Of a stretch of 64,000 nucleotides of DNA, positions 20,949 through 25,925 are shown piece by piece (position 1 is the stretch's first letter; each line of letters begins with the position of its first letter). Under the pieces are notes generated by a model. It was not told the origin of the DNA. It saw only the letters and a list, made by a program, of their open reading frames with translations, and did no database searches. Position numbers and translations under genes: made by a program. This DNA comes from Thermoanaerobaculia bacterium (GTDB taxonomy: Bacteria > Acidobacteriota > Thermoanaerobaculia > UBA5066): positions 1 through 64,000 of the forward strand of contig JBBRRY010000004.1 in NCBI GenBank assembly GCA_038245905.1, written 5' to 3'.

Positions 20949-22121
20949 TCAGCCGAAGACGACTCCGAGGAAGCCGCCCAGGAGGACGAGCCATGCCGCG
21001 TTGATCCGGATCGTGGCGAGAATCGCGATGCTGGCGAGGAACAGCGCGACCGTCGGCCCGTTCGTGAGCGCCGGCCGTGCGAACAGCAGCGTGACGGAGC
21101 CCATCAGCGCGAGTGCGGCCACGTTGACGCCGTCGAGAAACGCGCCGAGGAGCCTCGACCGCCTGAGGCGGAAGACGAAGGGCCCCATCAGCGCCGCAAA
21201 CGCGAAGGCCGGGAGGAAGATTCCGAGCGTCGCGACCGCCGCGCCCGGAACGCCGCCCAGCAGGTAGCCGATGAACGTCGCCGTGGACGAGAGGGGTCCC
21301 GGAGTGAACTGGCCGACGGCCACGGCATCGAGGAGCTGCGCGCTCGTGAGCCAGTGCCAGCGGTCGACGAGATCGGCCTTCAGGAACGCGAGGAGCACGT
21401 AGCCGCTCCCGAACAGGACTGCGCCGGTCTTCAGAAAAAAGAGGAAAAGGCTGCTGAGAGAAAAAAAAGAGGAAACCGATGATAGTAGAGGAAGAAAGAG
21501 GAAGAAGATTTTCTTAGAAGGGGGATCGGAAGACACAGGAGCATCCGGAGCGCTCGTGCGCTGCGGCGGTGGCGGACCGGAGGCCTTCTTCCCCTTTCTA
21601 AGCAAATCTTCAATCACCCTGACACCAACCGAAACGCAGCCCGTAGCCACCAGCAGGACGATCTCGTTGATGACAAAGGACGCCATCAGCGCCGCCAGTC
21701 CGAGGATGAGGAGGAACCGGGTCTTCGCGGCCGCGCGGCCGAGACCGACGAGCGCCTGCACGATGAGCGCGAGGACGACGGGTTTGATGCCCGTGAAGAA
21801 GTGGGGAAACGCGGGCAGCGACCCGAACCTCACGTAGACCCAGGCGAACGCCGTCACGATCAGCGTCGCGGGAAGTACGAAACCGAGGCCCGCGAGGAGG
21901 AAGCCCGGCCAACCCCCGCGCGCGTAGCCGATGAAGAGAGCCATCTTCGTAGAGGTGGGTCCCGGCGCGAGATTCGTCGCGCCGAGGAGGTCGAGGAACT
22001 CGCCTCTGGTCATCCAGCCGCGGCGCGTCACGACCTCGTGCTCCATCATCGAGATGTGGGCGGCGGGACCGCCGAACGCCGTGGCGCCGAGGCGCAGGAA
22101 GAGAACTGCGATGTCCCTCAC
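20949..22121 (-). CDS. chrA: Chromate efflux transporter (long-chain CHR)
   Basis: FLRLGATAFGGPAAHI, PGPTST; second domain FGSGYVL, AVAVGQFTPGPL, FLDGVN. Confidence 0.92.
   Translation of the reverse strand: MRDIAVLFLRLGATAFGGPAAHISMMEHEVVTRRGWMTRGEFLDLLGATNLAPGPTSTKMALFIGYARGGWPGFLLAGLGFVLPATLIVTAFAWVYVRFGSLPAFPHFFTGIKPVVLALIVQALVGLGRAAAKTRFLLILGLAALMASFVINEIVLLVATGCVSVGVRVIEDLLRKGKKASGPPPPQRTSAPDAPVSSDPPSKKIFFLFLPLLSSVSSFFSLSSLFLFFLKTGAVLFGSGYVLLAFLKADLVDRWHWLTSAQLLDAVAVGQFTPGPLSSTATFIGYLLGGVPGAAVATLGIFLPAFAFAALMGPFVFRLRRSRLLGAFLDGVNVAALALMGSVTLLFARPALTNGPTVALFLASIAILATIRINAAWLVLLGGFLGVVFG
21504..21611. repeat. Inverted pair of the dispersed AT-rich motif inside the chrA linker
   Basis: GAAGATTTTCTTAGAAGG (21504-21521) ... 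CTTTCTAAGCAAATCTTC (21594-21611), preceded by a purine-rich tract at about 21433-21507. Confidence 0.75.
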
Positions 22122-22148
22122 GATGCCGGGAAACTATACTTCCCGCGC

Positions 22149-23363
22149 ATGACGCGTCGGCTGATCGTGCTCTTCGTTCTGATCGCCGGATCCGTCGCGG
22201 AAGCCGCTGCGCGGCCGCCCGCGCCGGAGATCTCGCTTCCGGACACGGAAGGGAAGACCGTCACGCTCGCCGAGTACCGGGGGCGCGTCGTCCTCCTGGC
22301 GTTCACACGTGGCGCCTGGTGACCCGCGTGCCTGGAGCAGTTGCTCCAGCTCGAACGGCTGAAGGGAACGGCGCTGAAGAGCGTGGCGATTCTCGTCGTG
22401 GCCCCGGATTCGCCCGAAGACTCGAGCGCGCTCGTGGCGACGGTCGAAAAGCAGCGTCACGTGCGCCTCACGCACCGGTTCCTCTCGGCTCCGCGCGGGC
22501 GCACCATGGGCCGGCCCGTGGGCGAGGGGAAGGCTCCGCGGCTTCCCCCTTCGCTCATCCTCGTGGATGAGGAGGGGCGCGAGGCCTGGCGCTTCGTGGA
22601 GCGTGAGCACCGGATGCGGCCCAGCGATCGCGAGCTCGCGCGCGCCGTGGCCGATGCCGCTGCGCCGCAGGCGCCATGGGCTCCGCCGTGCGCAGCCGTG
22701 CTCGTCGAGCTCTTCACGTCCGAGGGCTGCTCGAGCTGTCCGCCGGCGGAGCGTCTCCTCGCGCTTCTCGCGTCCGAGTCGGCCACCGCCGGCGTGGAGA
22801 TCGTCCCCCTCGCATTTCACGTCGATTACTGGAACCGCCTCGGCTGGGCGGACCCGTTCTCGTCCGCGGCATTCACGGAACGACAGGGCGACTACTCGCG
22901 GGTCTTCGGGGGCGATCGCGTATACACGCCGCAGATGGTCGTGAACGGCCGGAGAGAGTTCGTCGGAAGCGACGAACGTGTGGCGCGATCCGCTCTCCTT
23001 GCCACCGCGAAGGACGCGACCGCGGTGGTACGCCTCACGGTTCAGGAGGCGGCGAAAGGACCCGCGTCGCTCCGCGTGAGCGTCGGGGGCGCCACGGAGG
23101 GCGCGGAAATCTTTCTCGCCATCTCGGAGGACCTTCTCTCGACGGACGTGCCGCGCGGCGAGAACGCGGGCCGCCACCTCGAGCATACGGCCGTCGTCAG
23201 GGACCTGCGCCGCATCGGGCGAGCGGACGGCTCGGGCCGTTTCGAGGGGAGTCCCACACTGGCGCGCGACCCGGCCTGGAAGGCGGGCGCGCTCCACGCG
23301 GTCGTTTTCGTGCAGGAGCGCGGAAGCCGAAGGGTGCTCGGAGCCGCGCGCATTGCGCTCTGA
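22149..23363 (+). CDS. Probable exported selenoprotein: AhpC/TSA-like redoxin (UxxC) fused to a DUF1223-like thioredoxin (CxxC)
   Basis: Signal peptide, APEISLPDTEGKTVTLAEYRGRVVLLAFTRGAW-TGA-PAC, in frame with ORF 22341-23363 containing VLVELFTSEGCSSCPPA, FHVDYWN.LGW.DPF and YTPQMVVNG. Confidence 0.8.
22332..22349 (+). promoter_or_regulatory. Candidate bacterial SECIS hairpin CTGGAGC-AGTT-GCTCCAG
   Basis: Perfect 7-bp stem. The loop begins 16 nt after the in-frame TGA (22320-22322) and has G at its second position. Confidence 0.65.
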
Positions 23364-23423
23364 CTCCCGCACACAGAAAAACGAGCCTCGCTGCGCTCCC
23401 TCTGTCCGCGATACTCTCGGTCC

Positions 23424-25925
23424 ATGCGTCGAGCCGTCCGACTGCTCTCCCTCGTCACCCTCGCTTTCGCAGTGTCGGCTCCGGCCGCCGACCGCCTTGT
23501 CCCCGGGAAGCTCCCGTCGGGCGAGATGCTGCTTCCGAACGGCCGCCTCCTGACGCCGACGGGGACGCAGACCGAGGTCGCGCCCTATCCGTTCGCCCTC
23601 GCGTTGACGCCCGACGGCCAGCGCGTCGTCGTCGCCTGCACCGGTGCGGACGACCAGTCGCTTCATCTCCTGGACGCGTCGACCGGAAAGACGCTCGCGA
23701 AGGAACCCCTGAAGAAGTCCTGGCTGGGCCTCGCGATTGCGCCGGACGGTTCGCGTGTCTACGTTGCGGGAGCGGGCGGGAAGAACGTACTCGTGTACCG
23801 GCTCGAGAGCGACCGGTTCGTCGCCGAGGAGCCGATCCCGCTCCGGAATGGCGCCGAGCCCGCGAAGCTCGACGCGACGCCGTCCGGCCTCGCGGTCTCC
23901 GCGGACGGGAAGAGCCTCTGGGCGGCACGGATCCTGCTGAACGACGTCGTGAAGATCGACCTCGCGTCACGGTCGTTTGAGGCCCCGATTCCCGTCGGCG
24001 TTCATCCTTACCGGCCCGTGCTTTCGCCGGACGGGACCGTCCTCGCCGTCTCGAACTGGGGCGCGGCGTCCGTATCGCTCGTCGATGTGGTCAAGGGCGC
24101 GGTCCTCGCGACCGTGAAGACCGCCGACCACCCCTCGGACCTCGTCTTCTCGCCGGATGGGAAGACGCTTTTCGTCGCCCAGTCGAACCGGAACCTCGTC
24201 GCGGTCATGGATATCGCCGCACGGACCGTCGTGCGCCAGATCTCCGTCGCGCTCGGGCCCGACGGTCCGGGCACGCCGTCGGCCGACGCGCTTCCGGACG
24301 GGTCCACGCCGAACGCGCTCGCGCTCGCACCGGACGGCCGGACGCTCTTCGTCGCGAATGCGGACGACGATGCGGTCGCGGTCGCGGTCGTCGGCGTCGT
24401 GGGAGATCTCCGCTCCGCGCGGACGACCGGGTTCATCCCGAGCGGCTGGTATCCGGCCGCGCTCGCGCTCTCGCGCGACGGGAAAACGCTCTGGGTCGCG
24501 AACGCGAAAGGCGGCTGGTCCTGGTCGAACGCTGTGGGCGGTCCCGACCCGACGAAGAAAGGGGACGGCAAGCCCTGGAAGAAGACGCGCACGATTCCGG
24601 GCTCCGTATCGCGGATCGACGTGCCGTCCACGAAAGCGCTCCAGGCGCTCACGACGCGCGCGTACGCGAACCGCCGGCCCGGGGCGCGCGGCGCGGCGCG
24701 GGTCAGGGCCTCGGCCGTCGTGCCGGCGGCACCGGGCGGCGTCTCGCCGATCAAGCACGTCGTCTATGTCGTCCGTGAAAACCGCACATATGACCAGGTC
24801 CTCGGCGACCTCCCGCGGGGGAACGGCGACCCGTCCCTCGCGATCTTCGGCCGGGACGTGACGCCGAACGCCCACGCGCTTGCGGAGGAGTTCGGCCTCT
24901 TCGACAACCTCTACTGCGACGCCGAGGTTTCGGCGGACGGCCACAACTGGTCGATGGGCGCGTACGCGACGGACTTCGTCGAGAAGATCTGGCCGCCCAA
25001 TTACGGGAGCAAGGGCTTCGACTATCTCTTCGAGGGGAACGACGAGAACGCGTTCCCGACAAATGGCTATTTGTGGGACGCAGCGTCACGCGTGCGGCTG
25101 ACCCTCCGGAATTACGGCGAGTTCGTGGGCGTCGCCGCGGAGATGTCGTCGACGAAGCTGGCCCTCTCGACGGGAATGGCCGGTGCGCTCAAGGACAACA
25201 CCTGCCCCTTCTACCCAGGCTTCGACCTCGACATCCTCGACAACGCCCGCGTCGACATCTTCCTCAAGGAGTTCCGGGCTTTCGTGAAGGCGAAGGAGAT
25301 GCCGCGTCTCACCATCGTGCGGCTCGGCAACGACCACACGGCGGGAACGAAGAAAGGGGAGCGCACGCCGCGCGCGATGGTCGCCGAGAACGACGTCGCG
25401 CTCGGGCGTCTCGTCGAGGCGATCTCGCACTCGCCCTTCTGGAAGGAAACCGCGATCTTCGTGATCGAGGACGACGCCCAGAACGGCTCGGACCACGTGG
25501 ACGCGCACCGGACCGTGGGCCTCGTGATCTCGCCGTATACCCGCCGCGCGGGCTTCGTGGACTCGACGATGTATTCCACGGTCTCGATGCTCCGGACGAT
25601 GGAGTTGATCCTCGGCTTGCCGCCGATGTCGCAACACGACGCGTCCGCGATCCCGATGACGGCCGCCTTCGTGGACGCACCCGATTCGGCGCCCTTCGTC
25701 CATCGTGAGACGAAGATCCCGTTCTACGAGATGAATCCCGACGGCGCGCCCATGCAAGCACTCGTCGGGACGTGGGACTTCACGAAGGAGGACGCCGCGC
25801 CGGACATCGAGCTCAATGAGGCGATCTGGAAGAGCGTCCGGGGCGCGGATTCCGAGATGCCTGCGCCGGTGAATGCCGCGTTCGTTCGCGTGCCGACCTT
25901 TGCGCCGCGAGGCGGCCAGCCTTAG
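23424..25925 (+). CDS. Exported YncE/YVTN beta-propeller + phosphoesterase (alkaline phosphatase superfamily) protein
   Basis: Repeated [LF]SPDG.TL.V.N blades; IKHVVYVVRENRTYDQVLGD, SADGHNWS, NDHTAG, EDDAQNGSDHVDAHRT. Confidence 0.88.
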   Translation: MRRAVRLLSLVTLAFAVSAPAADRLVPGKLPSGEMLLPNGRLLTPTGTQTEVAPYPFALALTPDGQRVVVACTGADDQSLHLLDASTGKTLAKEPLKKSWLGLAIAPDGSRVYVAGAGGKNVLVYRLESDRFVAEEPIPLRNGAEPAKLDATPSGLAVSADGKSLWAARILLNDVVKIDLASRSFEAPIPVGVHPYRPVLSPDGTVLAVSNWGAASVSLVDVVKGAVLATVKTADHPSDLVFSPDGKTLFVAQSNRNLVAVMDIAARTVVRQISVALGPDGPGTPSADALPDGSTPNALALAPDGRTLFVANADDDAVAVAVVGVVGDLRSARTTGFIPSGWYPAALALSRDGKTLWVANAKGGWSWSNAVGGPDPTKKGDGKPWKKTRTIPGSVSRIDVPSTKALQALTTRAYANRRPGARGAARVRASAVVPAAPGGVSPIKHVVYVVRENRTYDQVLGDLPRGNGDPSLAIFGRDVTPNAHALAEEFGLFDNLYCDAEVSADGHNWSMGAYATDFVEKIWPPNYGSKGFDYLFEGNDENAFPTNGYLWDAASRVRLTLRNYGEFVGVAAEMSSTKLALSTGMAGALKDNTCPFYPGFDLDILDNARVDIFLKEFRAFVKAKEMPRLTIVRLGNDHTAGTKKGERTPRAMVAENDVALGRLVEAISHSPFWKETAIFVIEDDAQNGSDHVDAHRTVGLVISPYTRRAGFVDSTMYSTVSMLRTMELILGLPPMSQHDASAIPMTAAFVDAPDSAPFVHRETKIPFYEMNPDGAPMQALVGTWDFTKEDAAPDIELNEAIWKSVRGADSEMPAPVNAAFVRVPTFAPRGGQP

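Follow-up and report, generated by a model that had tools for sequence, protein, structure and literature searches.

The window analysed here, a stretch of 64,000 nucleotides from a contig of an uncultured sediment Thermoanaerobaculia bacterium (Acidobacteriota), contains a gene that is best explained overall as encoding an exported protein of 404 residues in which a selenocysteine-containing redoxin is fused to a DUF1223 domain, and we consider this reading probable. That TGA 22320–22322 encodes selenocysteine in a real selenoprotein is close to certain, and the fusion itself is very likely to be real in the organism. The product would be exported and is a UxxC selenoprotein whose class is known and whose fused architecture is new. 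The host genome assembly (G000) comprises 3.8 Mb in 113 contigs and is 96% complete. The parts of the gene and two neighbouring ORFs are listed below in window positions, with their strand and, where applicable, the basis of the assignment.

22149–23363, plus strand: whole selenoprotein gene, 404 codons followed by a TGA stop
22149–22205, plus strand: predicted Sec-type signal peptide, MTRRLIVLFVLIAGSVAEA (hydropathy scan and AxA rule)
22218–22613, plus strand: thiol:disulfide oxidoreductase domain of the AhpC/TSA–Redoxin fold, residues 24–155 (Pfam)
22320–22322, plus strand: UGA codon 58, read as selenocysteine, first residue of U58-P-A-C61 (homologue alignment and selenocysteine machinery)
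22332–22349, plus strand: bSECIS core hairpin CTGGAGC/AGTT/GCTCCAG, a perfect 7-bp stem with an AGUU loop
22617–22700, plus strand: linker and fusion junction, residues 157–184, RELARAVADAAAPQAPW followed by APPC181AAV (DNA alignment with G004, G011 and G012)
22701–23315, plus strand: DUF1223 domain of thioredoxin-like fold, residues 185–389, with C194-S-S-C197 (Pfam and PDB)
20949–22121, minus strand: chromate transporter (ChrA) ORF, divergent, with 27 nt between the start codons
19435–20994, minus strand: flavoprotein (pyridine-nucleotide) disulfide oxidoreductase ORF, adjoining ChrA

Architecture and surroundings of the gene

From ATG 22149 to the terminal TGA at 23361–23363, the frame is open save for TGA 22320–22322. 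The earlier note had observed that the list of open reading frames splits the gene at this codon though both parts share one frame, and our reading of the ORF agrees with this. The N-terminus, MTRRLIVLFVLIAGSVAEA followed by AARPP, has the n-h-c layout and the AxA site of a Sec signal peptide, as judged from sequence reading and a hydropathy scan, and cleavage would be expected after AEA. The N-termini of orthologues resemble this predicted signal peptide.

The first domain is matched by two Pfam families, Redoxin (PF08534, residues 24–155, 1e-15, above cut-off) and AhpC-TSA (PF00578, residues 24–98, 4.6e-14, 52.9 bits, cut-off 26). It keeps seven of the eight invariant family columns, the exception being the replacement of Cys by U58, and all six of the near-invariant ones. 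Codon 58 of 404, in the context RGAW-U-PAC-LEQL, thus stands inside the AhpC/TSA–Redoxin domain and at the first Cys of a W-C-x-x-C motif, as had been proposed from the letters of the DNA. The second domain covers the whole DUF1223 profile (PF06764, positions 1–202 of 202, 7e-61, 206.2 bits, cut-off 30.7) and matches PDB entry 2axo_A at 4.9e-30; 2AXO, the solved DUF1223 structure, is Atu2684 of Agrobacterium, and PMC3091736 places DUF1223 in the thioredoxin-like clan. The domain retains all 31 invariant columns of the family, the invariant E-L-F-T-S-E-G-C-S-S-C-P motif included, together with 26 of the 27 near-invariant ones, and the host genome contains no second DUF1223 match. The fused protein has four cysteines, C61, C181, C194 and C197. 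C181 (window 22689–22691) is an extra cysteine at the junction, in WAPPC181AAV, 13 residues before C194; the stand-alone orthologous DUF1223 proteins that were read carry H or R at this position.

A scan of 21700–23700 for promoter and terminator consensus sequences found nothing. The ChrA and flavoprotein disulfide reductase ORFs, as listed, overlap by 46 nt. The same arrangement of these two genes occurs in G004; in G011 and G012, the 2.5 kb upstream gave no match. On the 3' side of the selenoprotein gene lies a gene for a beta-propeller/phosphoesterase protein.

Origin and possible meaning of the fusion

The fusion proved not to be retained in homologues, a point that the earlier note had left to be checked. 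In the sister genomes G004, G011 and G012, redoxin and DUF1223 are encoded by two adjacent genes in this order, as seen from alignment of the junction DNA and reading in three frames. Their redoxin genes end in a stop codon (RELARAV..AP, then stop), and their DUF1223 genes lie in another frame and have their own Met and signal peptide. Relative to G004, about 107 nt are missing at the junction of the host gene, a stretch that comprises the stop codon and spacer as well as the signal peptide of DUF1223, and the product reads AAPQAPW joined directly to APPC181AAVLVELF. These comparisons indicate that the selenocysteine-type fusion is a deletion private to the host genome, which appears to be recent. 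The ancestral state would have been two adjacent genes, from which a single deletion of ~107 nt took the redoxin stop, the spacer and the second signal peptide. As DUF1223 has lost its own signal peptide, its production and export would depend entirely on the signal peptide of the redoxin ahead of it and on the reading of UGA58 as selenocysteine. The gene order is degraded in G003. In that genome (C4, about 1540900–1541683; L044 and L056), the selenocysteine redoxin ends early, after ALKD, and the DUF1223 match spans ~120 residues; this pair may be pseudogenised.

DUF1223 is a widespread exported family of thioredoxin fold with a solved structure and no known function. Its typical member is a stand-alone exported protein of about 220–330 residues with its own signal peptide, whereas the host's DUF1223 carries a selenoprotein redoxin domain in place of that peptide. 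The best 120 database matches are all stand-alone DUF1223 proteins of 223–329 residues, among which P0002 is 91% identical over DUF1223 and has a signal peptide. Among the best 150 representatives from 1.84 billion sequences searched, one, P0232, spans both domains. P0232, P0272 and P0273 are Cys-type fusions in the order redoxin–DUF1223 from two other Acidobacteriota MAGs. The order DUF1223–redoxin is found in two further Cys-type fusions, P0317 and P0318, and one cluster member, MDX2118697.1, comes from a Planctomycetota MAG. Each of these proteins joins the two Pfam families within a single exported polypeptide but has Cys in place of selenocysteine. They represent independent events, in which either the redoxin is of another subfamily (RGWPGYDCPFC) or the domains stand in reverse order; the WYRGxWCPFC motif of P0317 and P0318 is like the YRGxW(C/U)PxC type of the host redoxin. 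The earlier note knew of no description of this fusion. The literature found to mention DUF1223 contains neither redoxin/DUF1223 fusions nor selenoproteins. The architecture as such does exist elsewhere with Cys.

Other arrangements of DUF1223 were also seen. Beside a stand-alone DUF1223 gene of a Terriglobia MAG (L161), a redoxin of the P0232 type (RGYPGYQCPY) lies divergently upstream at about 249–769 on the minus strand, split over two frames. P0165 has a C-terminal cytochrome P460 domain after DUF1223, and P0147 has a multi-pass membrane N-terminus ahead of it.

The recurrent fusions, together with the redoxin–DUF1223 gene order of the sister genomes, support a functional link between redoxin and DUF1223, and we moderately favour the view that the two domains cooperate functionally. 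A complex prediction for the G004 pair (redoxin residues 22–178 with a 19-row alignment, DUF1223 residues 32–259 with a 65-row alignment) scored 0.00 against a mark of 0.32, which weighs neither for nor against binding. Once exported by the Sec pathway behind the redoxin's signal peptide, the protein would work as a thiol:disulfide oxidoreductase in which the U58 selenolate is the attacking nucleophile. The U58 centre may then exchange selenylsulfide or disulfide with the CSSC of DUF1223, or the two centres may share a substrate. Electrons could be supplied by a DsbD/CcdA-type membrane protein, and a DsbD_TM protein of this kind is encoded elsewhere in the genome (C5:117938–118567). Both centres of the exported relay envisaged in the earlier note, UPAC and CSSC, do lie in one polypeptide; a direct relay between them is plausible, but we lean slightly against it.

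It is also conceivable, although rather unlikely, that the selenoprotein is real and the fusion a recent neutral accident, with DUF1223 as a passenger or as a domain that keeps its own function behind a borrowed signal peptide. The selenocysteine-type fusion was found in the host genome only and in none of the other genomes searched, and many genomes of the same genus gave no strong DUF1223 match; G005 keeps the selenocysteine redoxin without DUF1223, the beta-propeller gene being directly next to it. Among 78 DUF1223 loci inspected with 1.5-kb flanks, two are fused and one adjoins a frameshifted redoxin, leaving 75 with no redoxin nearby. An accident of this kind is, however, harder to reconcile with an in-frame deletion that takes exactly the signal peptide made redundant by the fusion, or with the retention of every invariant DUF1223 residue in the only copy that the genome possesses. 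It would also leave aside that these families have become fused repeatedly, in both domain orders, in no fewer than two further lineages.

The functional reading can be extended, tentatively, to the suggestion that YRGxW(C/U)PxC redoxins and DUF1223 form an unrecognised exported two-centre redox module that has been welded together at least three times: once in the host with selenocysteine, again in other Acidobacteriota and, with the domains reversed, in Planctomycetota. If this were true, it would provide the first functional assignment of DUF1223, as a dedicated redox partner or substrate-handling domain of redoxins. The whole module would in the host be strictly selenium-dependent, because DUF1223 would be made and exported only by reading through UGA58. 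The fusions as such serve as a 'Rosetta stone' linking DUF1223 to CxxC/UxxC redoxins and offer a concrete biochemical hypothesis. The host gene is, in addition, a clean natural case of gene fusion by deletion, in which an upstream domain takes the place of a signal peptide and a second domain comes under the control of selenocysteine recoding.

A very improbable alternative is that the fusion arose in assembly or binning and that the organism has two genes like its sister species. The assembly is in 113 contigs, and the exact DNA is present in one sequencing run, X1, its probable source; runs X2, X6 and X8 contain relatives' contigs that cover the gene partly and end at 22634–22677, near the junction. 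A Logan contig of X1 (3275 bp, depth 48), which comes from a different assembler working on the same reads and confirms the junction by re-assembly only, nevertheless spans 21900–23500 with no differences, no gaps and no alternative joint, and the junction is non-repetitive and preserves the frame. Runs X2–X9, each with a small share, were used neither for habitat nor for absence.

Decoding of the in-frame UGA

The genome encodes the complete selenocysteine machinery whose presence the earlier note had named as a check. A tRNA-Sec gene (selC) scores 62 bits, above the Rfam cut-off, and is called tRNA-SeC with anticodon TCA by ARAGORN; selB (323.6 bits), selA (427.9 bits) and selD (333.6 bits) all exceed their curated cut-offs. 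The selD gene (contig C11:26–994, locus L018) is itself a selenoprotein gene, with an in-frame TGA in the context SSAG-U-ACK; its sequence reads MKPHPSILTFASSAG-U-ACKLGQSDL. A reassigned code, with TGA read as Trp or Gly, was ruled out, since TGA is the ordinary terminator in four of the six genes checked near the locus, the terminal stop of the selenoprotein gene itself being counted.

Both codons that a selenoprotein family would be expected to show were found at the aligned position of homologues. Redoxin homologues were fetched and aligned from 61 related genomes. The aligned codon is TGA in G005, G011, G012 and G003 (GAW(TGA)PAC; 74–86% identical over the redoxin) and likewise in G035, G034, G056 and G049, and it is a Cys codon in G004 (GAWCSAC), G002, G015 and G019. 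In a sample of the phylum (401 genomes, 62 of them with a match at E ≤ 1e-8), 29 loci were returned, with TGA at this codon in 18 and Cys in 11; one of the 18, from an unpublished genome, was left out of later counts. The combined homologues comprise 26 with TGA, from many genera, and 15 with TGY (Cys) at the exactly aligned codon. Loci L050 (G054) and L051 (G022) were left out, having no tblastn match at E ≤ 1e-3.

Several observations were made alongside these alignments. Locus L052 (G017:C365) was rejected as a homologue of the family. At about 2024–2371, in a genome of the same genus as the host, it encodes a different redoxin with TGA in FFPKADTPG(TGA)T, which looks like a TxxU-type selenocysteine peroxiredoxin (BCP/PrxQ-like). 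P0397, a close Cys-type orthologue, has WCTAG in place of WCxxC, with Gly at the resolving Cys. Some Acidobacteriota genomes carry two TGA-containing redoxin paralogues, for example G416 at C1:355691–356140 and 317815–318264.

A perfect hairpin with a G in its loop, pointed out previously as SECIS-like, follows the UGA at 22332–22349. In the bSECIS model, as given in PMC13188914, the loop has 3–9 nt with a G in one of its first two positions, usually followed by G or U, the upper stem has 4–16 bp, the distance from UGA to loop is 16–37 nt and the minimum free energy is at most -7.5 kcal/mol. With its AGUU loop, 7 bp, a distance of 16 nt (22323–22338) and -11.3 kcal/mol, the hairpin lies within all four limits of the model. 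Among 5000 synonymous recodings sampled according to local codon usage, only 1.8% match the stability of its 18 nt, and it makes use of the rare Leu codon TTG, which accounts for 6 of 318 Leu codons. The 61-nt fold is unexceptional (z = +0.56), a score that is uninformative in GC-rich DNA such as this gene (70% GC). A search of 22100–22600 against Rfam at E ≤ 10 returned two chance-level matches and no SECIS family.

Comparison of homologues shows that the hairpin is kept with TGA and mostly lost with Cys. A hairpin with 5 or more bp and at most -6 kcal/mol occurs in the SECIS window of 25 of the 26 TGA forms and of 2 of the 15 Cys forms (Mann–Whitney p = 5.5e-6, a value overstated by the kinship of the homologues). 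In G004, the closest Cys orthologue, the CLEQLLQ peptide is identical and is written with the codons CTC GAG CAG CTC CTT CAG, which form no hairpin. Seven sequences that could be aligned in a common register pair in 49 of 49 stem cells, against 24–57% in slid controls, with compensatory changes in two stem pairs. Across all 26 TGA sequences, among which registers vary and loops include AGUU, AGUUG, AGGUG and others, the observed covariation was reached by none of 500 shuffles.

The reading of UGA58 as selenocysteine is thus predicted jointly from the genome, the homologues and the hairpin. The hairpin 16 nt downstream would direct SelB and Sec-tRNA(Sec) to recode the UGA, and translation would proceed from the AhpC/TSA–Redoxin domain (W-U58-P-A-C61) through a short Ala/Pro linker into DUF1223 (C194-S-S-C197). 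That TGA 22320 is instead a true stop, left by a nonsense mutation, pseudogene formation or a sequencing error, with a product starting downstream at, for example, TTG 22341, has next to no probability: gene callers treat the orthologues in exactly this way and UGA also terminates the selenoprotein gene itself, but the conservation of the active-site TGA across genera and its alignment with Cys, the covarying hairpin and the full decoding machinery all argue against a stop, and a product from 22341 would have neither signal peptide nor active site and would miss the first beta-strands.

Known relatives and current annotation

The redoxin belongs to the long-known predicted class of Prx-like UxxC selenoproteins, whose reference proteins include a Geobacter entry in PMC13188914, and does not constitute a new class; this assignment is made by PF00578 and the presence of UxxC in place of a TxxU motif. 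Prx-like thiol:disulfide oxidoreductase selenoproteins (PF00578; UxxC or UxxU) are described (PMC1088965), tabled (PMC1794560) and said to be 'predicted with high confidence' (PMC13188914). The AhpC/TSA fold, the occurrence of Sec/Cys pairs and a bSECIS hairpin just 3' of the UGA are common to this class and our protein, which differs from it by the signal peptide and the C-terminal DUF1223 domain. The redoxin falls into a subfamily with the motif F/Y-x-R-G-x-W-U-P-x-C that is common in Acidobacteriota. Current understanding is not overturned by these results, selenocysteine-containing Prx-like redoxins and exported selenoproteins being already established.

Peroxiredoxins proper carry a PxxxTxxC/U peroxidatic motif, according to PMC13188914. 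A protein of this kind was ruled out here, as F-T-R-G-A-W-U-P-A-C has no Thr three residues before either U58 or C61. With reductases of the TlpA/ResA/CcmG type, the fused protein has in common that it would be exported, with a Trx-like fold and an active site of the W-C-x-x-C type, and weak sequence matches to TlpA, ResA and 3hdc_A were obtained in the PDB. No NCBIfam model reached its cut-off with the fused protein: TlpA scored 27.3 bits against 230 at the equivalog level, ResA 23.5 against 170, the SelL-related NF040769 32.6 against 120 and WAxxUGC_long (NF041054) 19.8 against 300. The neighbours checked (chromate transporter, flavoprotein disulfide reductase and beta-propeller/phosphoesterase) provide no cytochrome-maturation context.

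The expectation that standard pipelines would mis-annotate such a gene is borne out by the databases. Close orthologues fall into 38 database clusters, of which 10 are full-length Cys proteins and 22 are fragments of 103–118 residues. Documented here is thus an entire clade of selenoproteins in Acidobacteriota that annotation pipelines cut short. One of the 22 fragments bears the NCBI name 'hypothetical protein', and the fragment P0149 begins MLQLERLK, at the TTG of the hairpin loop.
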